NCBI GenBank assembly: GCA_016742075.1
Contig: JACVCL010000003.1
Coordinates: forward strand, 20,087-84,086
Source: Phycisphaerales bacterium
Lineage (GTDB): Bacteria > Planctomycetota > Phycisphaerae > Phycisphaerales > UBA1924
Length of the DNA stretch: 64,000 nt
Reading direction: 5' to 3'
Shown here one piece after another: positions 12,551 through 32,341 of this stretch (position 1 is the first letter of the stretch; every line of letters begins with the position of its first letter). A program made the position numbers and the translations under genes. A model generated the notes under the pieces. The model worked only from the letters and a program-made list of their open reading frames with translations, did not search any database and was not told the DNA's origin.

Positions 12551-12583
12551 CGGGAGGAGCGGTGACTTCGGCCGCGGGCCGGG

Positions 12584-13684
12584 TCACGGCTTGGGGGGCA
12601 GCGGCGGCGGGGCGCTGGAGAACAGTTGGGCGAGCTCCATCACCTGCCCGGCCTTTTGCCAGTCGACCATCCCCTGCCGCCAGGCGAGGGTGTCACGGGT
12701 GAGCGTGCCCGCCGCGACCTGAGCGCGGAGCCCGTTGAGGTCGAAGGGCCCCTGCTGCTGGCCGTTGACGCCCAGGTAGAACTGAGCCGACTGGGGCAGC
12801 GGCGGCGGCGCGGCGCCGCCGGGGCCTGCACCCTGCTGCATGGCCTGGCCCATCGTCCCGGCCATGCCGAAGCCCATGCCCATGGCGATGGTGGAGCCGG
12901 CGCCGCCCGGGTTCTTGGCGGCCTGCTCGATCGCTTGGGCGGTCTGGTACTGCGCGTAGGCGTTCAGGTTGCCGATGATGCCCATGCTGCTCCGCTTGTC
13001 GAGGGCCTGCTCGACCTCGGGCGGGAGCGAAATGTTCTCGATCAGGAGCTTGGCGAGCTCGATGCCGTAGGCATCGAACTCGGGCTGGATGCGCTTGTGG
13101 ATGAACTCGGCGAGCTGGTCGTAGTTCGCGGCGAGATCGAGGATCGGGATCCCCGCCTCGCCGAGCGTGTCGCTGAAGCGTGCCACGATCACGTTGCGGA
13201 GCTGGCTGACGAACTCGTCGGTGGTGAAGCGAGAGTCGGTGCCGGCGACGTTTTTGACGAGGGCGCCGGGGTCCTTGACGCGCATGGCGTAGGTGCCGAA
13301 GGCGCGCAGCCGCACCGGCCCGAACTCGGGGTCGCGGCGCATCACCGGGTTCATCGTGCCCCATTTGAGGTCGGTGAACTGGCGGGTGCTGACGAAGTAC
13401 ACCTCGGCCTTGAAGGGGGACTCGAAGCCGTATTTCCAGCCGAGAATCGTGGCCAGGATGGGGAGGTTCCGGGTCTCGAGCATGTAGGTGCCGGGGGCGA
13501 AGACGTCGGCGAGCCGGCCCTCGTTGACGAAGACGGCCGCCTGACTCTCCCGCACCACCAGCTTGGCGCCGTACTTGATCTCGTTGTTGTACCGCTCGAA
13601 CCGGTGGACGATGGTGTTCTGTGAATCATCCAGCCACTGGATGATGTCGATCAACTCGCCCTTGAGCTTGTCCCAGATGCTCAT
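12584..13684 (-). CDS. SPFH/band-7 domain protein with C-terminal GYF_2 domain (YdjI-like)
   Basis: 366 aa from ATG 13684, with a GGAGG 8 nt upstream. MSIWDKLKGELIDIIQW...VVRESQAAVFVNEG is typical of the COG4260-type SPFH family. The C-terminal FYLGVNGQQQGPF...LAWRQGMVDWQKAGQV matches a GYF_2 domain. Confidence 0.75.
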   Translation of the reverse strand: MSIWDKLKGELIDIIQWLDDSQNTIVHRFERYNNEIKYGAKLVVRESQAAVFVNEGRLADVFAPGTYMLETRNLPILATILGWKYGFESPFKAEVYFVSTRQFTDLKWGTMNPVMRRDPEFGPVRLRAFGTYAMRVKDPGALVKNVAGTDSRFTTDEFVSQLRNVIVARFSDTLGEAGIPILDLAANYDQLAEFIHKRIQPEFDAYGIELAKLLIENISLPPEVEQALDKRSSMGIIGNLNAYAQYQTAQAIEQAAKNPGGAGSTIAMGMGFGMAGTMGQAMQQGAGPGGAAPPPLPQSAQFYLGVNGQQQGPFDLNGLRAQVAAGTLTRDTLAWRQGMVDWQKAGQVMELAQLFSSAPPPLPPKP

Positions 13685-13797
13685 GATCGAACCTCCGTGG
13701 CCGGCCCCGCCGCGGCGGGGCTGACGAATAAGTGTACCGGCAGAGGCCGCCGGCGCGGACGCCCGCACCCCATTGTTCGGAGGGGCGTGCGCGGGTT

Positions 13798-14177: not shown

Positions 14178-14984
14178 CTACGGCGCCCCGGGAAGGGGCT
14201 CGAGCCACCCGGGCTCGATCTCGGTGCATCCCCGGGCGGAGGTGTCGAACATCACGGCGTTGAACGACCCTGTGAGGCCGTTGTTGGGCGTCGGCTGACT
14301 CGGCTTGAACGTGCCCCGATGGAATCGGCCGAGCCGCTGGGCCACGTGCGCGGCCTGGCGGAAGTCGAGCACCGAGCTGGCCCGAGTGGGCGGCGGAGCG
14401 CCCGGCGTGGGGCCCGAGCCGGCGACGTCGGCGAGAGACCCGTCGACGATCATCGGCGTGGCGGCGGGCCGGGTCACGCGGTCGATTCGCACGGCGACCG
14501 GCGCGGTCCCGGGCGGTAGCGCGGCATCGTAGTTGCCACGATCGCCAGGGAGGCCGGCCAGACCGGTGGCGTTGGCGGCGTAGGTCCGCGTCATGTCGCG
14601 CCCGTAGTGCCGGGACGCCGACGGGCAGACGAGCACCGAGTCGCGGGTGAGGAGCTCGCCGGCGGTGGTGCCCCCCCGGTCGGCGTACGACTGGACGACG
14701 AGCGCCCAGTTGGGGAGCGTGGTGTAGGGCTGGCCGACGGCCGGGCCCGTGCCGCGGGAGTCGCCAGCGTAAAGGGTGCAGGCGATCGCGGACTGGCGGA
14801 GGTTCGAGAGACAGATCGCCGATCGCGCGGCCTCTCTCGTGGAGGCCATGGTGGGCAGCAGCACCGCCAGCAGCACGCCGATCACGGCCACGACCACCAG
14901 AATCTCGACGAGCGTGAAGGCGCCCTGCAGAGCGCCGCTGGCGCGGGCGGGATGATCCCCATCGGATGGACGGACTCCGTACAC
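14178..14984 (-). CDS. Prepilin-type N-terminal cleavage/methylation domain protein (DUF1559-like, degenerate H-X9-DG)
   Basis: It has ALQGA|FTLVEILVVVAVIGVLLAVLLP followed by SNLRQ. The C-terminal NAVMFDTS resembles the DG end of the H-X9-DG motif but with DT and a longer spacer. Confidence 0.7.
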   Translation of the reverse strand: MYGVRPSDGDHPARASGALQGAFTLVEILVVVAVIGVLLAVLLPTMASTREAARSAICLSNLRQSAIACTLYAGDSRGTGPAVGQPYTTLPNWALVVQSYADRGGTTAGELLTRDSVLVCPSASRHYGRDMTRTYAANATGLAGLPGDRGNYDAALPPGTAPVAVRIDRVTRPAATPMIVDGSLADVAGSGPTPGAPPPTRASSVLDFRQAAHVAQRLGRFHRGTFKPSQPTPNNGLTGSFNAVMFDTSARGCTEIEPGWLEPLPGAP

Positions 14985-15786: not shown

Positions 15787-15975
15787 GTCGGACCTCCGGC
15801 GGATCGGACCGACCCCGCCGGTGAGGACGCGGGGGCCCGCCAGAGCCCCTTGCCGCGGCCGCCGAGGGGCGTCGCAGGATGACCATGAAGGGTATCGGCG
15901 CAGTTGTCAACAGAAAAGCAGGAAGATCCGCGTTTCGGCGGGACAGCAGGGCGAATTTGCGGTAGATATCGAGCC

Positions 15976-17805
15976 ATGCAAGGGCTCACGCATCGCTGGG
16001 CATGGAGGCCCTCCGCCGACCCGGGCGGCGCGATGAAGCGGTTTACTTCGCCGCCCTCACCCGTCTCGATGGAGGGGGCCGAGCCCCTTGTGGCACGGGT
16101 TCTCGCGGCGCGGGGTCTGGGCTCGCCCGAGGCCGCCGCGGAGTTTCTGCGGCCCTCGCTGAAGGGGCTGCACGATCCCGGCCTGATGCCGAATCTTGAC
16201 CGGGCGGCCGAGCGGCTGCTGGTGGCGCTGCGGGCCGGCGAGCGCATTGTGATCTACGGCGACTACGACGTGGATGGCGTCTGCGCGTCGGCGATTCTTT
16301 TTCACGTGCTGCGCGCGATCGCGGGGCTGTCGCCTGAAGAGGCGGCCGGGAGCGCCCGCATCCGGACCTACGTCCCGCACCGTCTCGACGAGGGCTACGG
16401 GCTGCACGTCGACGCGATCGAACAACTGGCCGCGGAGGGGGCCCGGGTCATTGTGTCGGTGGACTGCGGCGTGACCGCGGCCGGGCCGGCGCGTCGAGCG
16501 GCGGAGCTGGGGGTGTGCCTGATCATCACCGATCACCACAATCTTCCGGATGGCGCGGCCGACCGTGCGGGGCACGGGGCGGAGTTGCCCGCGGCGTTCG
16601 CGATCGTCCACCCCCGGCTGCCGGGGGGCGCGTACCCGTTCGGCGACCTGTGCGGGGCCGGCGTGGCCTTCAAGCTGGCGTGGCGGCTGGCGACGATGGA
16701 CGCCGGCGGCGATCGGGCGGCGCCGGCGGTGCGCCGGGTGCTGCTGGACATGATGGCCCTGGCCGGGATCGCCACAATCGCCGATGTGGTGCCGCTCGTC
16801 GGCGAGAACCGGTTGATCGCCGGGTTCGGTCTAGCGCGGGTGAAAGACACCGAGGTCGAAGGACTACGGGCGCTCGTGGAGGCCTCGGGTCTGGGCGGGG
16901 CCGCGGTGACCAGCGAGGATGCCGGCTTCAAGATCGGGCCGCGCCTCAACGCCTGCGGCCGCCTAGGTCACGCCAGAGAAGCGGTGGAACTGCTGACGAC
17001 GGCGCGGGGCTCTCGCGCCGCCGAGATTGCGGCGGAACTCGACCGCACGAACCGCCAGCGCCAGGCGACCGAGCGGGCGATCTTCGAGCAGTCGAGCGAA
17101 CTTGCGGAAGCGGCGGGCATGACGGGCCCGGAGCGCCGGGCGATCGTGCTGACCGATGAACGCTGGCACGCGGGCGTGGTGGGGATCGTTTGCTCGAGGC
17201 TGGTCGGGCGGTACCACCGGCCGGCGATTCTGCTGGCCCGTGACGGCGACGTGTGCAAGGGGAGCGGCCGGAGCATCGACGGCTTCAACCTTCACGCGGC
17301 GATCGCGGCGTGCTCGGCGCACGTCGAGAAGTTCGGCGGGCACGACATGGCCGCGGGTCTCACCTGCCGGGCTGACGCGGCGGAGCTCTTCGCCCGCGAT
17401 TTCATCGAGCATGCCTCCCGGAGCATCGCGCCCGAGCAGCTCACGCCCGAGCTGAGCATCGACTGCGAGGCCACGGTGGAGGAGCTCACGGAGTCGGCCG
17501 TCCGGCAGCTTCGGACGCTCGGGCCGTTCGGCCGGGGCAACCCGGCGCCGAGCATCGTGCTGCGGAACGTCCGCGCGACCCGCGGCGCCGAGTCTTTCGG
17601 CGCGGAGGGCCGCCACATGAGCGTGTTCGTCAGGGGCCGCGGCGAGCGCGAGCTGCGGCTGGTCGGATGGGGCATGGGCGATCGGCGCGGGGCCATTCGG
17701 GCCGGCGCGACGCTGGACGTGGTTGTCCGCCCGGAGATCAACGAGTGGCAGGGGCGCATCCGCGTGGAGCCGGTGCTGAGCGACCTTCGCCTGGAGGGCC
17801 TCTGA
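15976..17805 (+). CDS. recJ: Single-stranded-DNA-specific exonuclease RecJ
   Basis: It has the DHH motifs IVIYGDYDVDGVCA, SVDCG and IITDHH, plus GGHDMAAG (DHHA1). The start is uncertain: ATG 15976 is preferred over 15904. Confidence 0.85.
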   Translation: MQGLTHRWAWRPSADPGGAMKRFTSPPSPVSMEGAEPLVARVLAARGLGSPEAAAEFLRPSLKGLHDPGLMPNLDRAAERLLVALRAGERIVIYGDYDVDGVCASAILFHVLRAIAGLSPEEAAGSARIRTYVPHRLDEGYGLHVDAIEQLAAEGARVIVSVDCGVTAAGPARRAAELGVCLIITDHHNLPDGAADRAGHGAELPAAFAIVHPRLPGGAYPFGDLCGAGVAFKLAWRLATMDAGGDRAAPAVRRVLLDMMALAGIATIADVVPLVGENRLIAGFGLARVKDTEVEGLRALVEASGLGGAAVTSEDAGFKIGPRLNACGRLGHAREAVELLTTARGSRAAEIAAELDRTNRQRQATERAIFEQSSELAEAAGMTGPERRAIVLTDERWHAGVVGIVCSRLVGRYHRPAILLARDGDVCKGSGRSIDGFNLHAAIAACSAHVEKFGGHDMAAGLTCRADAAELFARDFIEHASRSIAPEQLTPELSIDCEATVEELTESAVRQLRTLGPFGRGNPAPSIVLRNVRATRGAESFGAEGRHMSVFVRGRGERELRLVGWGMGDRRGAIRAGATLDVVVRPEINEWQGRIRVEPVLSDLRLEGL

Positions 17806-17828: not shown

Positions 17829-19052
17829 TCACTTGGCCATGGTGTTCGCGACGCTGAAGATCGGCAGGAGCAGCGAGATCGCGATGCCCCCGATGGTCGT
17901 GCCCATGAAGATGATCATCACCGGCTCGATGAGCTGCGTGGCCGCCTTCACGGCTTCGTCGAGGTCTTCCTCGCTCGACTGGCCGATGCGCTCCAGAACA
18001 TCCGGCAGCCGCCCGGATCGCTCGCCGGCGGCGATCATCTGGCTCACGCTCCGGGGCACGATGGCCGATCGGGCAAAGGCCTCGGAGATCGGCCGTCCGA
18101 CCGTCATGGCCTTGTCTACGGTGTCCCAGAGCTCATCCCAGAGGACGTTCTCGGTGACGCCGCGGACGATGCGCACGGCGTCGAGGAGCGGCACGCCCGC
18201 GGCGAGCAGCGTGCCGAGGGTGCGCGTGGCACGCGTCAGGTAGAACATCGTGTACATACGGCCGAGGACGGGCAGGCTGATCTTGGCGCGGTCGATGAGG
18301 CGTCGGCCCGATCTCATCATCCGCAGGCCCAGCGTGCCGCCCACGACCGCCGCGATGCCCGCAACAACGGGCACCCAGTGGGCGAGCAGGAACTCGGAGA
18401 CGCCGAGGACGATGCGAGTGGGCGTGGGGAGCGCCGCCGAGCGCGACTCGTAGATCCGCGCGAACCTCGGCAGCACCCACATGACGAGAAACAGCGTGAC
18501 CACCGTGGCCAGCGAGACCATCACCAGGGGGTAGGTCATCGCCCCCTTGATCTGCTTGATCGTTCGCCGCTCCTTGGAGAGGTAGCCTGCGACGCGCGCG
18601 AGCATGAGACCCAGCTTCCCCGACGCCTCGCTGGCCCGGATGAGCGACACCATGAGGGTCGGGAACACCCGCGGAAACTGCCGCATGGCCTCGGAGAAGG
18701 GCACGCCGGCGTGGATACGGTCGGTGAGCACACCCATCACCCGCTTCATCGGGCCCGGACGGAGCTGGTCGAGATAGGCCTCGAGGGCCTCGGCGAGCGG
18801 CACGCCGGTGTCGAGCATCACCGCCAGCTGGTTGGCCATGCCGATGACCTCATCCCGGCGAACCGTGCGAGCGGCCTGACGCACCAGCACCTGCGACGCG
18901 TCGACCGCCGGACGGGCCCCGAGGAGGACCTCGGTGACGACCTTGCCCTCACGCTGCAGCGTGCGGACGACGTCGGACTGGGAGCGGGCCTCGAGCGTGC
19001 CGCTCACCTGGTTGCCGGCGGGGTCTCTGGCTTTGTAGGAGAACGTGAGCAT
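17829..19052 (-). CDS. pilC: Type IV pilus / type II secretion platform protein (GspF/PilC family)
   Basis: 407 aa from ATG 19052. It begins MLTFSYKARDPAGNQVSG and has two repeats of the T2SSF domain. It ends GGIAISLLLPIF. Confidence 0.85.
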   Translation of the reverse strand: MLTFSYKARDPAGNQVSGTLEARSQSDVVRTLQREGKVVTEVLLGARPAVDASQVLVRQAARTVRRDEVIGMANQLAVMLDTGVPLAEALEAYLDQLRPGPMKRVMGVLTDRIHAGVPFSEAMRQFPRVFPTLMVSLIRASEASGKLGLMLARVAGYLSKERRTIKQIKGAMTYPLVMVSLATVVTLFLVMWVLPRFARIYESRSAALPTPTRIVLGVSEFLLAHWVPVVAGIAAVVGGTLGLRMMRSGRRLIDRAKISLPVLGRMYTMFYLTRATRTLGTLLAAGVPLLDAVRIVRGVTENVLWDELWDTVDKAMTVGRPISEAFARSAIVPRSVSQMIAAGERSGRLPDVLERIGQSSEEDLDEAVKAATQLIEPVMIIFMGTTIGGIAISLLLPIFSVANTMAK

Positions 19053-19068: not shown

Positions 19069-20811
19069 TCAGGTGGAGGAAGCCCTGATGACTTCGTCGA
19101 CGGTGGTGAGGCCGACAGCAGCCTTGGCCAGCCCGTCATCGCGGAGCCCCTTGTGGCCGATGACGTTGGCGAGCGTGCGGAGCTCCTGCAGGGTGGCCCC
19201 ACCGGAGATCTGCTCGAGGACGGCCTCGGTGGGGACGAACAACTCGAAGATGCCCAGCCGGCCCGCGTAGCCCGACGCACGGCACCGGGCGCAGCCGGCG
19301 CCCCGGAAGAGCCGCGTGATCGCGCTCGCCGCGGACTCGACCGTGACACGCTCCTGAGTATCCGGCTCGTACTCTTCCTTGCAGTGCGGACAGATCTTGC
19401 GCACCAGGCGCTGGGCGAGGACGCCGCGGAGCATCGCGGCCACAAGATACGGCTCGATGCCCATGTTCGTCAGGCGTGTAACGGCCGAGATGGCGTCGTT
19501 CGTGTGCAGGGTCGAAAGGATCAGGTGACCCGTGAGTGCGGCCTGCGTGGCGATCGTGGCCGTCTCGAGATCGCGCACCTCACCGACCATGAGCACGTCG
19601 GGATCCTGACGCAGAAGCGCCCGCAGGGCCGAGGCGAACGTGAACCCGGCTTTGTCGTTGACCTGGAACTGGTTGACACCCGGGATCTGCGCCTCGACCG
19701 GGTTCTCGACAGTCGAGATGTTGATGTCGTCGGAGGAAATCTCCATGAGCGCCGAGTAGAGGGTCGTCGACTTGCCGGATCCGGTCGGGCCGGTGACGAG
19801 CACCATGCCATTCGACATATTGATGAGCTTCCGCCACGTGCCCACCATCTCGGGCCGCATGCCCATTTTCTCGATGGTCAGGATGGCGTTGCGATTATCG
19901 ATGATGCGGATGACGACCTTCTCGCCGAACTTGCCCGGCATGGTCGAGACGCGGAGGTCCACGGGCCGACCGTCGATGGCCACGTGGATGTCGCCGTCCT
20001 GCGGCAGCCGGCGTTCGGAGATGTCCATCGACGCCATGATCTTGATGCGCGACACCACCGCCGGGAGCATCTGATGCGGCGGCATGAGCTTGGTCGCCAG
20101 GCGGCCATCGACGCGGAACCGCACACGGCAACGGTGGTCCTCGGGCTCGATGTGGATGTCGGATGCGCGATCCTGGATAGCCTGGTAGAAGATGTAGTTA
20201 ACGAGCTTGACGACCGGCGACTGGCCCGAGAGTTCCTCGATGTCGCCGAGGTCGAACGACTGCTTCTCGCTGACCTTGAACTCCCGGACGTCGACATTCT
20301 CGTAGATGTCGTCGATGACGAATACATTCGCGGTCGGCAGGTACGCCTGCAGCGTGGCGCGGATGTCCTGGGCCGTTGACACCACCACCTGCGCTCGGCA
20401 GCCCGAGAGACGCTCGATCTCTTCGACGAGGAACAGGTTGGCCGGCTCGCACACCGCCACCGTGAGACTTCCCTCGACGCAGAACAGCGGCAGCACGCAG
20501 TGGCTGTCGATGAACTCACGTGGCAGACGGTCGATGACGCGCGGGTCGGCGATACGCGGCGTCACCCGGGCGAACGGGACGCCATAGGACGCCGCGAGGC
20601 ATTCCATGATCACGGCTTCGCTGACGAATCCGAGCTCGACCAGCACCTCGCCCAGCAGCTTGCTGTGGCCGTGCGACGTCTGGGCTTCCAGCGCCTCGGC
20701 GAGCTGTTCCCGGGTGATGCGTCCCTGCCGGACGAGCAGCTCGCCGATCGGCAGGCGGGCCGCTGTCGAAGCCGAAGCGGCCGAGCCGGGCTGTCCCACG
20801 GGCGGGCTCAT
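19069..20811 (-). CDS. pilB: Type IV pilus / type II secretion assembly ATPase (GspE/PilB family)
   Basis: 580 aa from ATG 20811. It has an N-terminal T2SSE_N-like region, Walker A GPTGSGKST, an Asp box, Walker B, and a tetra-Cys CPHC...CARC. The ATG overlaps the STAS stop (ATGA 20808-20811). Confidence 0.9.
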   Translation of the reverse strand: MSPPVGQPGSAASASTAARLPIGELLVRQGRITREQLAEALEAQTSHGHSKLLGEVLVELGFVSEAVIMECLAASYGVPFARVTPRIADPRVIDRLPREFIDSHCVLPLFCVEGSLTVAVCEPANLFLVEEIERLSGCRAQVVVSTAQDIRATLQAYLPTANVFVIDDIYENVDVREFKVSEKQSFDLGDIEELSGQSPVVKLVNYIFYQAIQDRASDIHIEPEDHRCRVRFRVDGRLATKLMPPHQMLPAVVSRIKIMASMDISERRLPQDGDIHVAIDGRPVDLRVSTMPGKFGEKVVIRIIDNRNAILTIEKMGMRPEMVGTWRKLINMSNGMVLVTGPTGSGKSTTLYSALMEISSDDINISTVENPVEAQIPGVNQFQVNDKAGFTFASALRALLRQDPDVLMVGEVRDLETATIATQAALTGHLILSTLHTNDAISAVTRLTNMGIEPYLVAAMLRGVLAQRLVRKICPHCKEEYEPDTQERVTVESAASAITRLFRGAGCARCRASGYAGRLGIFELFVPTEAVLEQISGGATLQELRTLANVIGHKGLRDDGLAKAAVGLTTVDEVIRASST

Positions 20812-21143
20812 CGCAGGCTCCTCACGGCGTGCTCCACCGTCGGGTGCGACTCGAGCGCGAGCTCCAGCCGCGTGAGTGCCAGGATGGTGCTCACGGTCGT
20901 GTCCGGGCTGATGAGCCGGAGCTGCCCGCCCGACTCGCCGAGGGACCGCTGGAGCCGCAGGCACGACTCGAGCGCGGCCGAGTCGATGAACTCCAGATGC
21001 TCGACATTCAGCAGAAGGTGCCGGGCCGACTTGGCCCGGCGCTCGGTGGCCGCACGCTCAAAGCCGGAGATATCGTCGGCCGTGAACTCTCCCGACAGCG
21101 TCAGCACGCCGATGTGCTCGAAGTCGTGGGCCGAGATCTTCAC
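20808..21143 (-). CDS. STAS domain protein (anti-sigma-factor antagonist family)
   Basis: 111 aa with a GTG start overlapping the upstream stop (GTGA 21140-21143). HLEFIDSAALESCL keeps the SpoIIAA-type phosphorylatable Ser context. Confidence 0.75.
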   Translation of the reverse strand: MKISAHDFEHIGVLTLSGEFTADDISGFERAATERRAKSARHLLLNVEHLEFIDSAALESCLRLQRSLGESGGQLRLISPDTTVSTILALTRLELALESHPTVEHAVRSLR

Positions 21144-22780
21144 GCGGCCTCCCGTCCGGCATCCGACGAGGGCCGCTCGGCCGCCTGGCGTCGGGCGACC
21201 ATGCCGTCGTACTGCGCCAGGTCGAGCTTGACGAAGGCCTCGGCGAGGTCGGGGTCGAACTGCGTGCCGGCACCGCGCAGCACCTCGGCGAGCACTTGAT
21301 CGCGGGCCATCGCGGCCCGGTAGGTGCGGTTGGAGCTCATCGCGTCGAAGGCGTCGACGAGACCGATGATCCGGGCGACCAGAGGGATATCGACGCCCCG
21401 CAGGCCGTGCGGGTAGCCCTTACCGTCGAAACGCTCGTGGTGGTGCATGACGCCGGGCAGCACGTCATCGAGGAAGGGGATGTCCTTCAGGATGTGGTGG
21501 CCGATCTCGGGGTGCTGCTTGATGAGGCGGTATTCCTCGTCGCTCAGCCTGCCCGGCTTGCGCAGCACTTCCTCGGGCACGCCGATCTTGCCGATGTCGT
21601 GGACCAGCCCGGCGATGCGCACACGCTCGGCATGCTCGGCGGACAATCCGACGGCCGTGGCCAGCGTGAAGGCCAGATGGGCCACGCGCTCGGAGTGACC
21701 GCAGGTGTACGGGTCTTTGGCGTCGATCGCGGCCGTGAGGGCCTCGAGCGTGCCGAGAAACATCAGCTGCTGATCCTCGTACAAGCCCGCGTTCTGGAGC
21801 AGCACCGCGACCGACGCCGCGGCCGCTTCGAGCATCTTCATCTCGATCGACGTGATGTCCGGGTCGGATCCCTGCTTGTCGCCCGCCATGAGCGCCCCGA
21901 GGAGCTTGCCCTCGTGGGTGATCGGCTGGATCAGCACCGGCGAGACCCCCTGCGCCAGCGGCCCGCGCTCGTCTCCGGCCAGCAGAAGCCGGCCGTGCAC
22001 GCCGAGCCGCCCCAGCAGCCCACCCACGAACTGCTCGGCGGCCGAGCGGGTGCAGGGCAGGTCGCCGGACCACATCACACGGCCCGCCATCGACCTGGCG
22101 CGGCGTTCGTCGCGCACGAAGCACGCCCCGACCCACGCGAAATTCATCACGGCGAGCAGTTCGGCACAGGACAGCCGCACGAACCGCTGGGGGTGCACCA
22201 GCTCGGTCATGGCCTGGGACAGCTTGTAGAGAAGACTGGTCTCTTCGTACGACTCGGCGAGCTGGCGGCTGAGCGAGTCGGTGGTCGCCGCGCCGCTGAA
22301 CACCTGAAGCAGGTCGGCGTGCATCCACGCCAGGCTCCGGGCGTTGCCCTGGGCTCCGGCGGCGGTGAAAGTGGCGATGGACGCCAGCGAGGAGCGGCAC
22401 GCCGACGTGTCGAGCCCGGCGAGTCCGCACAGCCGCGCGAACTCTTCCGTCGCCGTGGCGGCATGGCCGAGTGCCAGGGCCGCGATGTACCCCCGGCGGC
22501 GGCGCCGGTGGGTCTCGACCAGCGGCACCAGCCAGGCTCCGGGGAACAGCTCGCGCACCGCCGGCTGCTCTTCCGCGGCCCAGAACTCCACGCACCCGCG
22601 GACCAGTTTCTCAAGGCCGGCAGACCGCAGGAACATGCCCGCCGGGCCGGTCTCGGCCGGTGGCGAGATCACCTGCCCGGCCGCCGAGAGGCGCCAGGTC
22701 GGCATCCCCAGTGCGCGGCAGCGTTCCCGCAGGATGAGCTCGGGAGACTCCGCCCGGGTTGGAACGATCACGTCGTTCAC
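21140..22780 (-). CDS. GAF domain-containing HD-GYP phosphodiesterase
   Basis: 546 aa. It has HDIGKIGVP ... HHERFDGKGYPHGL (HD-GYP), preceded by a GAF-like region and an unassigned N-terminal domain of about 200 aa. The GTG start overlaps the receiver stop (GTGA 22777-22780). Confidence 0.8.
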   Translation of the reverse strand: MNDVIVPTRAESPELILRERCRALGMPTWRLSAAGQVISPPAETGPAGMFLRSAGLEKLVRGCVEFWAAEEQPAVRELFPGAWLVPLVETHRRRRRGYIAALALGHAATATEEFARLCGLAGLDTSACRSSLASIATFTAAGAQGNARSLAWMHADLLQVFSGAATTDSLSRQLAESYEETSLLYKLSQAMTELVHPQRFVRLSCAELLAVMNFAWVGACFVRDERRARSMAGRVMWSGDLPCTRSAAEQFVGGLLGRLGVHGRLLLAGDERGPLAQGVSPVLIQPITHEGKLLGALMAGDKQGSDPDITSIEMKMLEAAAASVAVLLQNAGLYEDQQLMFLGTLEALTAAIDAKDPYTCGHSERVAHLAFTLATAVGLSAEHAERVRIAGLVHDIGKIGVPEEVLRKPGRLSDEEYRLIKQHPEIGHHILKDIPFLDDVLPGVMHHHERFDGKGYPHGLRGVDIPLVARIIGLVDAFDAMSSNRTYRAAMARDQVLAEVLRGAGTQFDPDLAEAFVKLDLAQYDGMVARRQAAERPSSDAGREAA

Positions 22781-23205
22781 GCCGCACGGGCCTCCTCGTG
22801 GCCGTCGTGTTCGCCCTCACCGGCAAGCCCGAGCAGCACCTGGACCCGCTGGAGGATCTGCCTGGGGCTGAAGGGCTTGGAGAGCACGGCCTTGATGTTG
22901 GTCCGGTCCAGGTCGCTCTGAGCCAGCGCGTACCCGCGGGCGGTGAGCATGATGAGCGGGATCCCGGCGGTCGCCGGGTTCTGCCGCAGCTTCACGCCAA
23001 GCTCAAGGCCCGAGACGTACGGCATCTGCAGATCGGTGATAATCAGCGCCGGCAGACTCTGGCACGCGAGCTCGAAGGCCTCCTCCCCATCGCCCGCCAT
23101 CTGCACGTCGAAGCCGGCATTGGAGAGCTTCAGCGACACCACCTGCACGATGTGTGCTTCGTCATCGGCCACGAGGACCTTGATCCGGTTGGGCTGCGCG
23201 GTCAT
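22777..23205 (-). CDS. Single-domain response regulator (CheY-like receiver)
   Basis: 142 aa. It has VLVADDE ... LIITDLQMP ... KPF. ATGA overlap with the kinase stop (23202-23205). Confidence 0.85.
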   Translation of the reverse strand: MTAQPNRIKVLVADDEAHIVQVVSLKLSNAGFDVQMAGDGEEAFELACQSLPALIITDLQMPYVSGLELGVKLRQNPATAGIPLIMLTARGYALAQSDLDRTNIKAVLSKPFSPRQILQRVQVLLGLAGEGEHDGHEEARAA

Positions 23206-24668
23206 CGGCTCCCCTCGCTCTCATACGGGATGCTGAACCAGAACCGACTGCCCATGCCCAGCTCGCTCGTGACGCCGATCCGGCCCTGATGGACCGTCTC
23301 CACGATGTGGCGGACGAGATTCAGGCCGAGTCCGGTGCCCTTGGCGACGCGCTTGTAGCTCTCGATCCGATAGAATTTCTCGAAGATCCGGCCCAAGGCG
23401 TCCGGCGGGATCCCCAGCCCGGTGTCCGAGACGCTGACCAGAACCGCCCGCGCGGCGTCGTCGTTGTCGACTGTGACGGTGACACGGCCGCCGTCGGGCG
23501 TGTACTTGATGCCGTTGCTGACCAGGTTCATCACCACCTGGTGCATCATGTCGCGGTCGGCCTGGGCGGTGTAGACCAGTGGGCCGGCCTTGAAGAGCAG
23601 CATGATGTTCTTGGCCCGGGCCTGCGGCTGCATGGTCTCGATGACGTCCTTGCAGACCTTGACGAAGTCGACCTCGGTCCGCTCGGCCTGGACGATCCCC
23701 GCCTCGATGCGGGAGATGTTCAGCATGTTGTCGATCATGCGCGAGACACGCTCGGTCTCGGACTTGATGATCTGGTAGAACTCCCGCTTCGACGCCTCGT
23801 CACGGGCCTCGCCGTCGAGCAGCATCTCGACGTAGGCATTGATCGAACTCAGCGGCGTCCGAAGCTCGTGGCTGGCCTGAGAGACGAAGTCGGACTTCAT
23901 CTGCGAGATCTCTTTCTCGCGCGTCACGTCCCGCAGAATCGTCACGACGCCGCCGACACCGTTCCGGCTGTCGGGCAGGCTCGCGAGCGTCACGTCGAAC
24001 GCCACCTGCCCGCCCGCCCGGGCCGATCCGCCGGGGGCCAGGGCGTGCTCCACGTGGCGCTGCTTGTTGGGCACGCCCGAAGAGCGGACCTCTTTAATGA
24101 GGGTTCGGAGACGATCGTCGAAGATCACGTCGTCGACGGGTTTGTGGAGCGCTCCGTCGGCTTCGAAGCCGAACAGCCGGGCGGCCGGCTCGTTCGCGAC
24201 GGTGATCTCGTTGAAGCCGTCGGTGACCAGCACGGCGTCGCGGAGGCTGTGCAGAACACCCTCCAGATGGTCGCGCTCGGCGTCGATCACCTTCTGCCGG
24301 ATGTCGGCTTCCTTCAAGCGGAGCGATGACTCCTCCGCCCGCCGCGCCCAGGCCGCGTTCGCCCGGTCGACCAGCCCCGAGACCGGGCCCAGCCAAGCAG
24401 GCCATCGGACAGGACCGCCGTCGCCCTTCTCGGCGGCGGCCGACAGCCGCTGGCCGGATCGGGCGAGGACCCACCGCACACCGATCCACACGGGCGCCAG
24501 CACCGCCAAAGCCGACGCCGCGTGCACCGCGAAGCCCATGAGCACGCTCTCGGCGAGCGTGGTGCCGCCAGCCCCTCTGAGCCAGAGGGCGTCGAGCGCA
24601 GCCGCCCCAAGGGCGACAACGGCGGCGGCTGCGACGCTCAGTGACAGGACCGGTCCTCTCGTCACCAT
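23202..24668 (-). CDS. Sensor histidine kinase (2 TM, PAS, HisKA, HATPase_c)
   Basis: It has the H-box SHELRTPLSS, the N-box NLVSNGIKYT, and DTGLGI and GTGLGL. The start is taken at ATG 24668 (MVTRGPVLSLSVAAAAVV); the longer ORF would overlap the TPR gene. Confidence 0.8.
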   Translation of the reverse strand: MVTRGPVLSLSVAAAAVVALGAAALDALWLRGAGGTTLAESVLMGFAVHAASALAVLAPVWIGVRWVLARSGQRLSAAAEKGDGGPVRWPAWLGPVSGLVDRANAAWARRAEESSLRLKEADIRQKVIDAERDHLEGVLHSLRDAVLVTDGFNEITVANEPAARLFGFEADGALHKPVDDVIFDDRLRTLIKEVRSSGVPNKQRHVEHALAPGGSARAGGQVAFDVTLASLPDSRNGVGGVVTILRDVTREKEISQMKSDFVSQASHELRTPLSSINAYVEMLLDGEARDEASKREFYQIIKSETERVSRMIDNMLNISRIEAGIVQAERTEVDFVKVCKDVIETMQPQARAKNIMLLFKAGPLVYTAQADRDMMHQVVMNLVSNGIKYTPDGGRVTVTVDNDDAARAVLVSVSDTGLGIPPDALGRIFEKFYRIESYKRVAKGTGLGLNLVRHIVETVHQGRIGVTSELGMGSRFWFSIPYESEGSR

Positions 24669-24717
24669 GCTCCTCCGGAATGCCCCGCCCAAGGGCCGGG
24701 GCGTCCGACTCTGGGCG

Positions 24718-25974
24718 CTACTTCGAGTCAGGAATCGGGGCGCTCGTGACCGTGCTGCCGGACTTCGCCCGCACGCCGGCCAGCGCCTGGCGGGCGGCGG
24801 CATCGTCCGGGCTCAGTTCGACGGCCAGCTCGAACGTGCGAACCGCCTCGTCGCGGCGGCCGAGATCGTCGAGAATCATGCCCTTGAGAATGACCGCCTC
24901 CCCAACCCCGGGGGAACGGGCCGCCCGCGTGAGGCCGGATTCCAGCGTCTTGAGAGCGCCTTCGAGGTTCTGCTGCCTCCGCTGAAGCATGGCGAAGAGG
25001 ACGTACCCCTCGTGCCGCTGCGGCGCGATGTTCATCAGGTGTGTGGCGCTCTCGCGCAGGCGGTGCTCATCGTTCAGAGTCAGCGACACCTTGCCCAGCG
25101 CGAGCCACGCCCGGACATCGCTGGGACCCTCTTCGTCCTTGGTCAGCCGCTGCAGAACGGCCCTGGCCTCGACCGGCCGGCCGGTCTCGATGAGGCACTG
25201 CGCCTGAAGGTGCAGCATGTCGCGACGGGGCTCTTTGGACTCCCGCAGGACCCGCCGGATCGTGGTCTCCGCATCGGCGAACCTGCCGCAGGCCATCTGG
25301 GCCCGCACCAAGTCCTCAAGGATGGCCGGCTCGCTGGGCGCCAGCAGCGACGCCTCCTGAAACTTCGCGGCCGCGTCCTCCGAGCGCCCTTCGATCATGG
25401 CGATGTGGCCGAGGCACTGCACCACACCGGGGTTATTCTCGAAGTTCTTCCGCCGCTCCTCGAGCCACGCCTTGGCGCCGGGCACGTCGCCCAGATCCAT
25501 CATCATCTCGGCCACCGCCAGGGCGTACTGGGGCTCGGAGGCCTTGAGCTCCGCCGCCTGGCGGTAGAGGCCCAGAGCCTGCTCACGCCGGCTGTAGCGC
25601 TCCATCACCACGCCCTTGAAGTACATGGCGTCGACGTTCTTCTCTTCGAGCGCCAACGCCCGGTCGAAGGACGAGACAGCCTCGTCGAGGCGGCCCTGCT
25701 CCATCATGATCCGCCCGCGCAGCACGTGGCTCTTGGGCACCGACCCCAGCAGCGCGATCGACTCATCCACGCTCCGCTCGGCCTTCTTCAGGTCGCCGGC
25801 GAGGAACTGCTGATGGGCCATGTCCCAGCTGGTGGCGGCCTTGATGCCGGCCATCCGCACCTGCGCCTGCTCCCGGAACTCGGTCGTGTACTTGCCGTGC
25901 CCCGGGCTGCACCCGGGAAAGGCCGCCGCGGCCAGGCCGCCGGCGATCAGTGCGATGCGGAAGGACTTCATCAC
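24718..25974 (-). CDS. TPR-repeat lipoprotein (candidate secretin pilotin, PilF/PilW/Tgl-like)
   Basis: It has a lipobox (LAAAAFPGC) and multiple TPR-like helices. The start overlaps the secretin stop (25971-25974). Confidence 0.65.
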   Translation of the reverse strand: MMKSFRIALIAGGLAAAAFPGCSPGHGKYTTEFREQAQVRMAGIKAATSWDMAHQQFLAGDLKKAERSVDESIALLGSVPKSHVLRGRIMMEQGRLDEAVSSFDRALALEEKNVDAMYFKGVVMERYSRREQALGLYRQAAELKASEPQYALAVAEMMMDLGDVPGAKAWLEERRKNFENNPGVVQCLGHIAMIEGRSEDAAAKFQEASLLAPSEPAILEDLVRAQMACGRFADAETTIRRVLRESKEPRRDMLHLQAQCLIETGRPVEARAVLQRLTKDEEGPSDVRAWLALGKVSLTLNDEHRLRESATHLMNIAPQRHEGYVLFAMLQRRQQNLEGALKTLESGLTRAARSPGVGEAVILKGMILDDLGRRDEAVRTFELAVELSPDDAAARQALAGVRAKSGSTVTSAPIPDSK

Positions 25975-28154
25975 TGGGCTCCCTCGGGGTTGACGAACGT
26001 GATTGTCGGCTGGGTCGGCACGACGACCGGCGGCAGCACGAACTCGGCCACGCCCATGCGGATCAGCCGCTGGGCCAGCATGGCCATCGTGCCGTCGTCG
26101 AGCTTCTCGGCGTGAGTCTCGGTCTGAGCGGGCTGGGCCGCCTGACCGGCCGCCAGCCGATCGGACGGGATGAACGAGCCATCGCTGATCGGCGCCGACA
26201 CGAGCGGCTGGGACGCGGCCTCACCAGCCGGGGCCGCATCGCTGTGGCCGGAGGTCTTGGCCTCGGGGGCCGGGGCCGGCGCCGGCGCGGCGGGGGCGCC
26301 GAATCGTCCGTGCACCTCGCCGCTGATGATCTCGGAGAGACCGCTGCGCTCGGGCTTGCGGTCGGCGTCCCCGGTGAGCCGCTCACGCAGCTTCAGGGCG
26401 TCGGGCTGGGACGGGTTGAGCTCCAGCGACCGGCGGATCTTGTGGGCGGCCTCGTCGCTCTTGCCCTGATCGGCCAGGCGCTCGGCCTCGATGTTCAGCT
26501 GCGCAGTCTGCTTCTCGCGGCTCCACGGCAGCAGCCCGTTTCGGGTGCCGGTGCGCAGGCGCTCGCCATGGGCGAGGGCCCGGTCGCCGGCATCTCCCAT
26601 GATCCGATCGTTGACGATCGTGGGCTTGACCAGGAAGATGATCTCCTGGCGGTCGGTCTTGTCGTCGTGACCACGGAACGCGGCGCCCAGGATCGGGATG
26701 TCGCCCAGCACCGGCACCTGGTTCCGGCCGAGCGTGGTGGTCTCCTTGAAGAGACCGCCCAGCACCACCGTCGAGCCGTCGGGCACGATCACGTTGGTCG
26801 TGATCTCCTGGGTGATCTCGTCGGGAATGGTCACCGCGGCGCCCGTGGCATCGGTGGCCGTGCGGATCACGCCCTCGGACACACGCGGCTTGAGCTCCAG
26901 GCGGACCATCCCGTCCTTCGAGACGAACGGCCGGAACGCCAGCTGGGTGCCGGTGTCGAGGAACTGCACCGTCTGAGTGGTCGAGGTCTGCGTGGTCGTC
27001 GTGTTGAGGTAGCCCAGCTTGCGGCCCACGAGCACGCGGGCCGGCTGGCGGTTGAGGGCCAGGATCTTCGGGTTCGACAGGATATTCACGTCCGTCACCT
27101 GATCGAGGGCCCGGATGAAGATCCCGATGTCATCCTGGATCACCGACACCTTCAGGCCGCCCTCACCGGCGGAGTTACCCACCGAGGACACACCGCCCAC
27201 GGCGCGGTTGCCCGGCGGGGTCAGCCTGCCGCTCTGGAGCGCGCTGGCCGCCGCCAGCGGGCCGCCGAGGCCCAGGAAGTCGGTGAAGTTGACCTGGCCG
27301 AGGATCGCGAAGTCGATGCCGAAGGCGTTGGCCTCGGTCAGCGTGCTCTGCAGAATCGTCGCCTCCACCAGCACCTGCGCGGGCCGCGAGTCGAGCTCCT
27401 TCAGCAGGTTCTCGATCTCGGCGAGGTGCTCCGGGAAGTCGCGCACCACCAGGGTCGCGGCGAGCGCGAACTCCTCATTCCCGGTGGGGGCGTTCTCCGG
27501 CAGGTTGAAGGCGCCGCTGTCCTTGTTCACCTTGATCGTGCCGCTCTTGGAGAGCAGCGGCGTCACGAACTGTTCCGCGTCAGTCGCCTTCAGGTAGTTC
27601 AGCGTGAACACGCGCGTCACGGGCTTGCGGCTCTCCTGCTTCATCTTCTCGACGTCCGCGGCCGGGTACACGAAGATGAAGCCGTCCTGCTCGACGTAGT
27701 CAAAGCCGTTGGCGCGCAGCACCGCGTTCAGAGCCTGCTCGAACGTCACGTCGTAGAGGAACAGCGTGAGCTTGCCGCCCACGTCCTTGCCCGCCACGAT
27801 GTTCCGACGCGACTCGATGCTCAGCATCCGCAGCACGTTCCCGAGGTCCTCATCCTGGACGAGGATGTCGACGGTGTTGTGCTGGGTCATCTTGACCTTC
27901 GACTGTGCGTTCGGGGCGGGGGCGGCGCCCGTTGCGCCGGTCGCGCCCGTCGCGGCCGCGGCGGAGGGGGCAGCGCCGGTCGGGGCCGGGGCGGGCGCGG
28001 CGGCCGGCTGGTCGGCCGTCGCCGCGGCGTTAAACGGCGCCTGGCCCGAGGCGGGCAGCATCACGCCGCCGATCGCCAGGCCGGCGATCAGCCAGGGGAG
28101 ACGCTTGTGCGCGAACATGCCGCCGACGACGTCGAGAGTGCTGATCTTGTGCAT
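25971..28154 (-). CDS. pilQ: Secretin (PilQ/GspD family) with long C-terminal extension
   Basis: It has the secretin core signature VPVLGDIPILGAAFR...IIFLVKPTIV and N0/N1-like repeats. An Ala/Pro-rich N-terminal linker is present, and about 210 aa lie after the core. Confidence 0.85.
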   Translation of the reverse strand: MHKISTLDVVGGMFAHKRLPWLIAGLAIGGVMLPASGQAPFNAAATADQPAAAPAPAPTGAAPSAAAATGATGATGAAPAPNAQSKVKMTQHNTVDILVQDEDLGNVLRMLSIESRRNIVAGKDVGGKLTLFLYDVTFEQALNAVLRANGFDYVEQDGFIFVYPAADVEKMKQESRKPVTRVFTLNYLKATDAEQFVTPLLSKSGTIKVNKDSGAFNLPENAPTGNEEFALAATLVVRDFPEHLAEIENLLKELDSRPAQVLVEATILQSTLTEANAFGIDFAILGQVNFTDFLGLGGPLAAASALQSGRLTPPGNRAVGGVSSVGNSAGEGGLKVSVIQDDIGIFIRALDQVTDVNILSNPKILALNRQPARVLVGRKLGYLNTTTTQTSTTQTVQFLDTGTQLAFRPFVSKDGMVRLELKPRVSEGVIRTATDATGAAVTIPDEITQEITTNVIVPDGSTVVLGGLFKETTTLGRNQVPVLGDIPILGAAFRGHDDKTDRQEIIFLVKPTIVNDRIMGDAGDRALAHGERLRTGTRNGLLPWSREKQTAQLNIEAERLADQGKSDEAAHKIRRSLELNPSQPDALKLRERLTGDADRKPERSGLSEIISGEVHGRFGAPAAPAPAPAPEAKTSGHSDAAPAGEAASQPLVSAPISDGSFIPSDRLAAGQAAQPAQTETHAEKLDDGTMAMLAQRLIRMGVAEFVLPPVVVPTQPTITFVNPEGAQ

Positions 28155-28210: not shown

Positions 28211-28840
28211 CTACCGCTCCGGAAGCTCGCGCTTGAGCTCCACGCGGAATCCGTCCTTCTCGAGCACCACGCTGAGTTCGCTGACCTCGACCAGCGTGAG
28301 CCCGTCCACCGATTCACCCGGACGCAAGACGAAGTTCCGGCGGTCGGACCGTCCGACCTGATCGACAACCGCCATCGGCGTTCGGCCGAGCATCGTGCTC
28401 CGGAGACGCAGCTTGGACGCCTGTTCCCGGACACGCTTCTCCGCCGCCGCACGTTCGCGGCCTCTCACAACCTCTGGGTCTTCGGCGGTTTCCGACTGTG
28501 ACTTCTGGGCAACTCCCGCCGACTGCGGCATCTCCACCGGCCGCGGAAACGTCACCTCGTTCACCAGGAACAAGTTGCGCGTCAGCTCCGCCGGGCGCGG
28601 CACCCGGATGATGGGGCGTCCTGCCGCGGCCGCGGCCGCGGCCGCGGCCAGGCCGGCCGCAGGGGCGGCATCGGGCTGCCCCGCGGCACGTCGATCGCGG
28701 GCCTGGGCCGAACCGATGCCGCCCGAGAGCACCGTCCGCAGGCCAAGCAGAGTCAAGGCCAGGAGCAGCACCCCCAGGACGGCGGACTTCTTTCGGTCAG
28801 CGTTCAGGATGATCCACAGCTCGGCTAGGCGCGTGCTCAT
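28211..28840 (-). CDS. PilP/GspC-like inner-membrane-anchored protein
   Basis: It has an N-terminal TM helix and a low-complexity Ala linker. The C-terminal beta-domain is FVLRPGESVDGLTLVEVSELSVVLEKDG. ATGA overlap with the pilO stop (28837-28840). Confidence 0.5.
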   Translation of the reverse strand: MSTRLAELWIILNADRKKSAVLGVLLLALTLLGLRTVLSGGIGSAQARDRRAAGQPDAAPAAGLAAAAAAAAAGRPIIRVPRPAELTRNLFLVNEVTFPRPVEMPQSAGVAQKSQSETAEDPEVVRGRERAAAEKRVREQASKLRLRSTMLGRTPMAVVDQVGRSDRRNFVLRPGESVDGLTLVEVSELSVVLEKDGFRVELKRELPER

Positions 28841-29423: not shown

Positions 29424-30119
29424 TCACGGGCGGACCTCCGAAGGGGTGGCGGCGACCGGAGCCGCCTCGAACACGTAGTGCCCCGCAAGGTCGACTTCGC
29501 ACACCACCCGGAACTGCCGGCCGGCCGTGCCCTCGACGTCGCGCGAGCGGGCGTAGTCCATCGAGATCCTGTCGAACAACGGGTTGCCGTCGAGGCCCGA
29601 TACCAGCCGGGCGATGGTCATGTCGTCGGGCGCCAGCCCTTCGATCTCGACCGCCAGCACCGACCTCGCGGCCGGCGGCTGCCCGGTCGACACCGCCGCC
29701 CGCCCCGGCGTGCGTCCCGAAGATCCCGCCCGGGCCAGGGACGCCAGATCTTGCCGGGGCGTCAGGGTGAGGCTGGTCAGCGAGACCGACTCGGGAACCT
29801 GCTCCCCCACCGCTGCGATCACGTCGCTCACCCGGACGGGCCACGCCAGCCTGTCGTACCGGGTGATCGCGCCCTCAAGCTCCCGGATCTCCTTCAGCAG
29901 CCGCTGCGTCTCCTCGCTCCGGCTCCATGCAAGCCGGGCCTCGGCCGCGAGCGACTCCACCCGCGCGGACCGCTCGGCGTGCCCGGCCCTCAGGATCGAG
30001 TACCCCGCGAACAGCACGGCGCAGGTCAGCGCGTACACCGCGACCCAGCGCCGCACATCCTCCCGGCCCTTGAGCGCGATCCGGCACGAGCCCGGCATGA
30101 GATCAATGACGGTTCTCAC
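29424..30119 (-). CDS. pilN: PilN-like pilus assembly protein
   Basis: 231 aa with a short cytoplasmic N-terminus, a TM helix (WVAVYALTCAVLFAGYSIL) and a coiled coil. The GTG start overlaps the pilM stop (GTGA 30116-30119). Confidence 0.6.
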   Translation of the reverse strand: MRTVIDLMPGSCRIALKGREDVRRWVAVYALTCAVLFAGYSILRAGHAERSARVESLAAEARLAWSRSEETQRLLKEIRELEGAITRYDRLAWPVRVSDVIAAVGEQVPESVSLTSLTLTPRQDLASLARAGSSGRTPGRAAVSTGQPPAARSVLAVEIEGLAPDDMTIARLVSGLDGNPLFDRISMDYARSRDVEGTAGRQFRVVCEVDLAGHYVFEAAPVAATPSEVRP

Positions 30120-31968: not shown

Positions 31969-31996
31969 GATCGGATCAACCCCTTGCACCCGGCGG

Positions 31997-32341
31997 TCAG
32001 CGCGACGGACGCGAACTCGCGGCCGGCATCTCCGTGACTTTCACCGAGATCCCGCCCTTGGTCAGCAGCGATTCCAGACGCTTGACGCTGGCGTCGATCC
32101 GACCCAGCGACTCGATCACCCGGTTGGTCTGCTCGGCGGGGTCCGGGAGCCGGGCCACGGGCTCGCGGCTCGGATCGGCCGACGAGCTCTGCGCCTGCGC
32201 GACCGACGCACCGGGCAGGAACCCGCGTTGGAGCACCAGCACGCCCAGCAGCACCGCGATCGCCGTCAGCACGCCGTTGAGATAGGTCAGCCCGCCCCGC
32301 ACCCCGTTGCCCACCTGCCCGCTGGATTCCACTGGCTTCAT
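31997..32341 (-). CDS. Small single-pass membrane protein, unknown function
   Basis: 114 aa from ATG 32341, with a TM helix LNGVLTAIAVLLGVLVL and a coiled-coil-like C-terminus. No family recognised. Confidence 0.4.
   Translation of the reverse strand: MKPVESSGQVGNGVRGGLTYLNGVLTAIAVLLGVLVLQRGFLPGASVAQAQSSSADPSREPVARLPDPAEQTNRVIESLGRIDASVKRLESLLTKGGISVKVTEMPAASSRPSR

Follow-up and report, generated by a model that had tools for sequence, protein, structure and literature searches.

In a 64,000-nucleotide (nt) stretch of a Phycisphaerales bacterium contig (JACVCL010000003.1; the whole stretch is called the window below), the gene of a small SpoIIAA-like STAS protein directly precedes that of the extension ATPase of a type IV filament machine, and no other gene pair is retained in all variants of the operon; the two are never split. 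Codon usage at their junction is the strongest sequence-level sign that the coupled translation of STAS protein and motor is kept by selection. The STAS gene belongs to a signalling cassette encoding a PAS histidine kinase, a CheY-like receiver, an HD-GYP protein and the STAS protein. The cassette is inserted between the genes of a tetratricopeptide repeat (TPR) protein and the ATPase, within one minus-strand gene string that carries machine and signalling genes from PilM to PilC and amounts, with the pilins, to an operon of about 16 kb. With some hesitation we favour the reading that the STAS protein is a dedicated motor cofactor that would act on the ATPase, probably on its N-domain, and that the histidine kinase, receiver and HD-GYP protein would form an accessory input lowering the local cyclic dinucleotide pool.

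Coupling and conservation of the STAS and ATPase genes

The open reading frames (ORFs) of the window were listed and translated, and the gene calls were searched against Pfam. The gene order from the secretin to the GspF/PilC platform and the motifs SHELRTPL, HDIGK, HHERFDGKGYP and FIDSAAL, as described in an initial annotation of this DNA, were all recovered. The same applies to its four 4-nt start/stop overlaps: the receiver start overlaps the histidine kinase stop (ATGA 23202-23205), the receiver and HD-GYP genes share GTGA 22777-22780, the STAS start overlaps the HD-GYP stop (GTGA 21140-21143), and the STAS stop overlaps the ATPase start (ATGA 20808-20811). Overlaps of 4 nt are also present at PilM/PilN (30116-30119), PilO/PilP (28837-28840) and secretin/TPR (25971-25974). 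As they run through the whole operon, the overlaps do not single out the cassette. The ATPase and platform genes are separated by a 16-nt gap, with no overlap.

The Shine-Dalgarno sequence of the ATPase gene is embedded in the final STAS codons, GTG AGG AGC CTG CGA TGA (Table 1). Arg108 of the STAS protein is encoded by the rare codon AGG in 38 of 46 Arg cases, against a background of 2.7-4.9% (the share of AGG among the Arg codons of ATPase orthologues and window genes), and Ser109 by AGC or AGT in 59 of 62 Ser codons. For Arg111, the codon CGA, which creates the ATG of the ATPase, is used in 36 of 58 cases against a background of 6-8%. These choices indicate that synonymous sites at the junction are under selection for the embedded Shine-Dalgarno sequence and the overlapping start codon; selection for AGGAG-N6-ATG also explains part of the near-invariance of the STAS C-terminus, AVRSLR. 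The codon-level keeping of the two signals is a clean natural case of selection for translational coupling. The initial annotation had taken the sensors and the motor for one translationally coupled unit. At the STAS-ATPase junction this is supported by the codon-level selection, but the overlaps, being operon-wide, are not specific to the cassette.

One genome per GTDB species was scanned with an alignment of the STAS family, which gave 71 loci, and these were then compared with the window proteins by tblastn. The HD-GYP, STAS and ATPase genes are contiguous in 69 of the 71 loci, at STAS identities of 29-70%; nearly all of these 69 come from records named as Phycisphaerae or Planctomycetota, one bearing only the title 'uncultured bacterium'. 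The two exceptions are Riflebacteria loci (STAS identity 25-28%) without the ATPase. The same order in dozens of genomes at such identities indicates that the arrangement is not due to chance. Since a search seeded with the STAS protein may suffer from ascertainment bias, ATPase-seeded look-ups (n=3) were added, and the STAS gene was directly upstream in all three. Thus, across Phycisphaerae the cassette is conserved beside the ATPase gene, a point on whose failure the initial annotation had been prepared to give up its proposal. In three orthologous loci with STAS identities of 58-62%, the gene order is the same from PilM through RecJ and Adk. Among 67 loci compared, 48 show the 4-nt overlap between STAS stop and ATPase start, and in 62 the gap is no larger than 4 nt; an overlap of this length between HD-GYP stop and STAS start was seen in 50 of 69.

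The cassette has lost other members in several loci. The histidine kinase gene is missing in L060, L066 and L072, and both the histidine kinase and receiver genes in L071 and L079; the STAS-ATPase pair is kept in all five. In L077, which is Phycisphaeraceae bacterium D3-23 (CP114179.1, a 4.6-Mb single-contig genome), the histidine kinase and HD-GYP genes are missing, the order is TPR, receiver, STAS, ATPase, and the receiver gene overlaps the STAS gene directly (L077:9612-12130). The genome looks like that of an isolate, as 'MAG' is missing from its record title, and might be used as an experimental model.

The genome of L077 also holds a second pair. At 7 kb past the operon, another STAS gene (118 amino acids, aa) is followed after 6 nt by another gene for a GspE/PilB-like ATPase (L077:18897-20336). 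This STAS protein has 28% identity to that of the window over 71 aa, the ATPase has no MshEN domain, and the pair adjoins RuvC, outside any pilus operon. A metagenome scan returned a single relative of the second STAS protein, with 40% identity, in L078 (6716-8625). There, STAS stop and ATPase start overlap, the ATPase again has no MshEN domain, and the neighbours are DnaA and genes for DUF1559 pilin-like proteins, this pair too being outside any pilus operon. As no HD-GYP or receiver gene was found near the paralogous pairs of L077 and L078, the association of STAS with a T2SSE ATPase has evidently recurred without the other members of the cassette.

Predicted properties of the STAS protein, the motor and the signalling proteins

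For the AlphaFold2 (AF2) model of the STAS protein (pLDDT 95.8), the best Foldseek match was SpoIIAA from its complex with SpoIIAB (1THN_B; TM-score 0.89, root-mean-square deviation 1.5 Å), and MlaB stood at rank 50 of the same listing (TM-score 0.60). In a profile search, SpoIIAA and TM1081 were matched with E-values of about 5e-10 and MlaB chains with 0.35-0.6. Hence the protein is not a member of the MlaB family by sequence or by fold, and MlaB serves as a functional analogy only. In the profile alignment, Asp54-Ser55 (FIDSAAL) corresponds to FMDSSGL of SpoIIAA, which places Ser55 at the phospho-Ser position; the STAS protein has a phosphorylatable Ser following a conserved Asp where helix alpha-2 begins. 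Ser55 (codon 20979-20981) is kept in 68 of the 69 species representatives. Gly takes its place in 4 of 31 metagenomic orthologues (P0019, P0021, P0039 and P0042) and in the deep-branching L075 (6001-6330), which form two separate lineages, so phosphorylation of Ser55 cannot be obligatory. Asp54 and Glu59 are invariant even where residue 55 is Gly. With NCBIfam TIGR00377 (ant_ant_sig) the protein scored 51.8 bits, marginally under the cut-off of 53.45. The family is tight, with proteins of about 111 aa, and a 100% identical protein was found in a Phycisphaerales metagenome-assembled genome. A profile built from the most divergent cassette STAS proteins recovered at least 802 clusters, and the best 120 of the 802 matches were all family members.

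The ATPase carries the Walker A sequence GPTGSGKST and a CxxC...CxxC motif. Its scores were 570.6 with TIGR02533 for GspE (cut-off 630.25) and 568.5 with TIGR02538 for PilB (cut-off 675.65); by sequence it is classed as a member of the PilB/GspE superfamily, not assignable to the type II secretion system (T2SS) or the type IVa pilus (T4aP). An MshEN-like N-domain covers residues about 21-157. In the AF2 model most 10-residue blocks of residues 21-157 have a mean pLDDT above 90 (range 89-98), and Foldseek matched the domain to 8PDK/9GLG (TMt 0.79-0.80) and 5HTL (TMt 0.77). The model thus resembles the c-di-GMP-bound GSPII-B domain of PilF and VcMshE (TMt 0.77-0.80), and it also matches the PilB-N:PilZ complex of X. 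citri, 7LKM (TMt about 0.7). As modelled, the N-domain has the MshEN fold, a four-helix bundle plus an alpha/beta subdomain. NCBIfam NF053729, which describes the MshE-related c-di-GMP motif, matched residues 21-73 with 57.6 bits against a cut-off of 38. The MshEN motif consists of two 24-residue stretches, RLGxx(L/V/I)(L/V/I)xxG(L/V/I)(L/V/I)xxxxLxxxLxxQ, joined by a 5-residue spacer (Wang et al., PMC5013675); in the window ATPase R31 occupies a hydrophobic position of this motif. The ATPase may plausibly bind c-di-GMP or be gated by it.

The histidine kinase starts at ATG 24668, preceded by GGAGGAG. Its N-terminus has two hydrophobic segments joined by a short loop, and these are followed by a PAS domain on the cytoplasmic side, HisKA with the H-box SHELRTPL, and HATPase_c. 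The receiver has D14/D15, D58, T88 and K110, as read from the sequence. The two proteins together have the H-box, HATPase_c domain and phospho-acceptor Asp of a two-component system.

The HD-GYP protein contains HDIGK and HHERFDGKGYP, so that the HD and HHExxDGxGYP signature is complete. It keeps seven of the eight metal ligands of PmGH (H362, H394, D395, H423, H447, H448 and D476), the eighth, E185 of PmGH, being Y358 here as in V-cGAP3. The numbering of the PmGH ligands used for the alignment is, we take it, that of Bellini et al. 2014. The protein is predicted to be of the cyclic-dinucleotide phosphodiesterase type. Its closest solved relatives are V-cGAP3 (5Z7C, 1.6e-41) and then PmGH (4MCW, 2.2e-37). 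V-cGAP3 is a 3'3'-cGAMP phosphodiesterase, and the sequence does not decide between c-di-GMP and 3'3'-cGAMP as the substrate. Residues 1-340 (21763-22780) gave no significant Pfam match beyond a weak GAF. The GAF domain of the initial annotation is therefore supported in part, with E-values of 0.006-0.01 in the window, under the gathering score, and a GAF_3 match in orthologues. The mean pairwise distance of this N-terminal region is 0.68 versus 0.33 for the catalytic domain; such fast evolution suggests that it is probably a lineage-specific sensor domain. RpfG-type REC-HD-GYP proteins likewise combine a receiver and HD-GYP downstream of a sensor kinase, with a link to pilus control. The window differs from them in that the receiver is encoded separately, the HD-GYP protein carries an N-terminal region of 340 aa with a weak GAF match, and V-cGAP3 is the nearest solved relative of this protein.

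The components found of the machine itself are PilM, PilN, PilO, the secretin, the platform and prepilins, and none of its parts attains a curated equivalog cut-off in NCBIfam. The secretin scored 231 for GspD (cut-off 351), 208 for PilQ (284) and 143 for MshL (250), PilM scored 84 (133), and the platform 302.8 for GspF (424). The 157-aa prepilin is nearest to GspG, with 54 bits (89). Neither PilT nor a prepilin peptidase was found in the window. With all parts under the equivalog cut-offs, we regard the machine as a divergent type IV filament system not assigned to T2SS, T4aP or MSHA. An MSHA-like identity, prompted by the gene order, was rejected, as MshL and other models remained under their cut-offs.

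Proposed mechanism, rival explanations and known systems

From this evidence, all of it comparative, we infer binding of the STAS protein to the ATPase, a role for Ser55, a route of phosphotransfer and nucleotide sensing. In the proposed mechanism, translational coupling would yield the STAS protein alongside the ATPase, to which it would most likely bind, probably at the MshEN-like N-terminal domain. There it would gate or stabilise the engagement of the motor with the machine, as PilZ does for Xanthomonas PilB and MlaB for MlaF. Ser55 would probably lie in the binding face, and a kinase encoded elsewhere may phosphorylate it. The histidine kinase would phosphorylate the free-standing receiver, which would modulate the HD-GYP enzyme in trans; this enzyme would lower the local pool of c-di-GMP, possibly of 3'3'-cGAMP, and the MshEN-like N-domain may read that pool. 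The initial annotation had supposed a phosphorelay that lowers c-di-GMP. Such a relay is not universal (L077 has no HD-GYP gene), the nearest solved relative of the HD-GYP protein is specific for cGAMP, and the position-1 Arg is missing from both halves of the MshEN motif. Still more tentatively than for the mechanism itself, SpoIIAA-like STAS proteins could represent a new class of direct cofactors of PilB/GspE-family ATPases, namely adaptors present in fixed ratio and possibly phospho-switchable that license filament assembly, with at least two paralogous pairs in Planctomycetota, one of them combined with a histidine kinase, receiver and HD-GYP protein.

Several observations weigh against a direct action of the STAS protein on the motor and against dinucleotide sensing by it. 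As 4-nt overlaps are common along the operon, tight junctions alone are no proof of a protein complex. A query of concatenated STAS and ATPase sequences revealed no natural fusion among the best 120 homologues, all of which were ATPases of about 575 aa with 81-86% query coverage. The mirror-tree partial correlation of STAS divergence was 0.33 with the ATPase N-domain, close to or a little below 0 with the HD-GYP protein, and 0.40 with the TPR protein, the last signal being as strong as that for the ATPase; mirror-tree comparison among operon proteins was judged too weak to carry weight. In fold and sequence the STAS protein is closer to SpoIIAA/RsbV, whose partners are GHKL Ser kinases, than to MlaB. 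Planctomycetota encode many GHKL Ser kinases of this sort. With the SpoIIAA-like fold and Ser55 in 68 of 69 representatives, a kinase encoded elsewhere is plausible. As to the N-domain, it shares with the MshE/PilF/PilB2-type ATPases (PMC5013675) the MshEN fold, the tandem helical-hairpin motif and a score above the cut-off of the NCBIfam model. However, it differs from them in that the position-1 Arg is absent from both MshEN halves (P21 and L52, where the consensus of the family is Q and L), the spacer has 7 residues instead of 5, and the second motif ends in Ser instead of Gln. The relaxed motif of Wang et al. is failed by 108 of 120 ATPase orthologues; since they fail it yet the NCBIfam profile passes, the strict and relaxed motifs were dropped as deciders on c-di-GMP.

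The likeness to SpoIIAA could also mean that a canonical partner switch acts in trans, in which a distant RsbW/SpoIIAB-like kinase and a PP2C phosphatase toggle Ser55 and release a sigma factor for pilus or other genes, the position in the operon serving co-expression only. The matches to SpoIIAA and TM1081 with Ser55 aligned to the phospho-Ser, the close superposition on SpoIIAA, the near-constancy of Ser55 and the TIGR00377 score just below the cut-off are all in favour of this explanation, which we nevertheless consider unlikely. In agreement with the initial annotation, no RsbW-type kinase (HATPase_c_2), PP2C/SpoIIE or sigma factor was found in the window by Pfam searches of the called ORFs and six further long ORFs, a few such as 62015-63865 (-) being left unscanned. 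None was present in 10 Pfam-annotated STAS-seeded loci, representing 7 distinct places, or listed among the neighbours of the three ATPase-seeded loci. In addition, Ser55 has changed to Gly in two independent lineages, and a partner switch leaves both the codon-level coupling to the ATPase and the second STAS-T2SSE pair unexplained.

Somewhat less probable again is that the STAS protein regulates the HD-GYP enzyme or the receiver, and hence cyclic-dinucleotide turnover, rather than the ATPase. A precedent is HsbA of P. aeruginosa, which controls the diguanylate cyclase HsbD (PMC5085249). The HD-GYP/STAS overlap in 50 of 69 loci and the direct overlap of receiver and STAS genes in L077 would fit such a role, but HD-GYP is absent in L077 and the receiver in L071 and L079, with the STAS-ATPase pair persisting in all three. 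Moreover, the paralogous STAS-T2SSE pairs have neither gene nearby, and STAS divergence shows no positive partial correlation with that of the HD-GYP protein. Co-location for co-expression only, without a shared mechanism, is the least credible explanation and in our view very improbable. The frequent 4-nt overlaps along the operon could reflect genome compaction in a GC-rich lineage. However, the adjacency is held down to 29% STAS identity across 69 species, rare-codon selection keeps the Shine-Dalgarno sequence and start codon, and the STAS-T2SSE pairing recurs independently.

If the STAS protein is a motor cofactor, its nearest functional counterpart is the Xanthomonas circuit PdeK-PdeR-FimX-PilZ-PilB, whose parts are not homologous to those of the window. 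In that circuit, local c-di-GMP is brought down by a two-component system that includes an EAL phosphodiesterase, and PilB has a small adaptor bound to its N-domain (PMC11656802, PMC8389850). Two traits would be shared: a small protein of about 110-120 aa on the GSPII/MshEN-type N-domain of the extension ATPase, shown for Xanthomonas and proposed here, and, in our proposal, a two-component system driving a phosphodiesterase that tunes the motor locally. The systems differ in that the adaptor has a STAS fold here and is PilZ there, an HD-GYP protein with separate receiver replaces the REC-EAL protein, and no FimX-like protein is present. Also, the window has every part encoded inside the machine operon, with translational coupling between adaptor and ATPase. 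A second analogy is offered by MlaB, which consists of one STAS domain and for which no kinase partner is known. It binds the ABC ATPase MlaF, whose stability and function depend on it, and the residue at the classical phospho-site, Ser/Thr, lies in the middle of the interface (PMC7367683). Unlike MlaF, the ATPase of the window is of the AAA+/PilT-like secretion type.

With SpoIIAA/RsbV modules the window STAS protein shares the fold and the phospho-Ser position. Related modules with other outputs are HmpV of Nostoc (HmpU-W), whose output to an undefined effector is needed for type IV pilus motility and which is encoded with a kinase and a phosphatase (PMC6495340), SypE/SypA of Vibrio fischeri, a partner switch with non-sigma output (PMC4517449), and HsbR/HsbA/HsbD of P. 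aeruginosa, where HsbA ties a STAS protein to c-di-GMP metabolism (PMC5085249). In the Hmp, Syp and Hsb systems the Ser kinase and PP2C genes adjoin the STAS gene, in contrast to the window, where none was found, and these systems have no link to a PilB/GspE gene.

Literature searches gave no STAS gene linked to PilB, GspE or MshE, which agrees with the initial annotation, whose author knew of no such wiring for type IV filament machines. STAS, anti-sigma factors, HD-GYP and Planctomycetes all go unmentioned in a 2024 review of PilB cofactors; the known motor cofactors, a subject of active research, are c-di-GMP, PilZ/FimX, CpiA and phage peptides, and a STAS partner is not on the list (PMC11656802). 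The comparison suggests that a type IV filament motor is controlled here through a cofactor and a dinucleotide, by way of a component type so far unreported. If the STAS protein binds the ATPase, the outputs of STAS proteins would extend past sigma factors, transporters and MlaF, and the range of PilB regulators would widen too. It would also provide a testable handle on the barely studied surface appendages of Phycisphaerae, a widespread environmental class. If the protein is a routine anti-sigma antagonist, the finding shrinks to a conserved, ordinary regulator embedded in an operon.

Layout of the operon and neighbouring genes

Table 1. Features of the filament operon and its borders, in window coordinates
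Feature	Position	Strand	Assignment and remarks
Terminator-like hairpin	33981-34006	-	Upstream of the pilin genes; 11-bp stem, 9 GC pairs, T-rich tail
Prepilin-type genes	31360-31989, 32503-32976, 33087-33758	-	Pfam N_methyl; head of operon
ORF without family assignment	31997-32440	-	Among the prepilin genes at the operon head
PilM	30116-31300	-	Pfam PilM_2
PilN	29424-30119	-	Pfam PilN
PilO	28837 to about 29430	-	Pfam PilO
PilP-position protein	28211-28840	-	Placed by gene order
Secretin	25971-28154	-	Pfam Secretin (E=6e-42) and STN
TPR lipoprotein	24718-25974	-	Pfam TPR families; signal-peptide/Cys N-terminus ...AAFPGCSP
Sensor histidine kinase	23202-24668	-	Pfam HATPase_c (4e-30), HisKA (7e-19), PAS (6e-9)
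Single-domain CheY-like receiver	22777-23205	-	Pfam Response_reg (E=6e-20)
HD-GYP protein	21140-22780	-	Pfam HD_5 (1.7e-41), HD (2e-20)
SpoIIAA-like STAS protein, 111 aa	20808-21143	-	Pfam STAS (7.7e-12, above cut-off)
Shine-Dalgarno AGGAG for ATPase	20818-20822	-	In STAS codons Arg108-Ser109, 6 nt before ATG 20811
PilB/GspE/MshE-type extension ATPase	19069-20811	-	Pfam T2SSE (3.8e-133), MshEN (6e-17)
GspF/PilC platform	17829-19052	-	Pfam T2SSF (5e-57); final operon gene
RecJ	15904-17805	+	Downstream neighbour of the operon, convergent with the platform gene

The strong hairpin ahead of the pilin genes probably marks the upstream limit of the transcription unit. A scan for promoters and terminators revealed no comparable hairpin and no credible terminator within the cassette, and no sigma-70-like promoter there either, although the sigma-70 consensus may not apply to this phylum. 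The sole sizeable non-coding gap from PilM to PilC is the 49 nt (24669-24717) between the TPR and histidine kinase genes, which leaves room for an internal promoter serving the cassette and the motor genes. An Rfam search of the whole window gave zero matches, and thus no c-di-GMP riboswitch.

Just upstream of the pilin genes lies a gene for a response regulator with an HTH_17 (excisionase-type) domain and a receiver (36267-37202, +), divergent from which a HEAT-repeat protein of 744 aa is encoded (34050-36284, -). The HTH_17-receiver protein could regulate transcription of the operon or be another target of the histidine kinase. Further prepilin-type genes (N_methyl, DUF1559), typical of Planctomycetota, are found outside the operon at 1753-3342 (+) and 14178-14984 (-).

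Elsewhere in the window, two big tricorn-like protease paralogues are encoded about 4 kb apart (50243-53971, +; 58208-62005, -), with a PD40 propeller, Tricorn_C1, PDZ and Peptidase_S41 domains. A gene pair at 11429-13768 (-), which has no bearing on the STAS finding, encodes an SPFH/Band-7 protein that ends in a GYF_2 domain and, after it, a double zinc-ribbon membrane protein.

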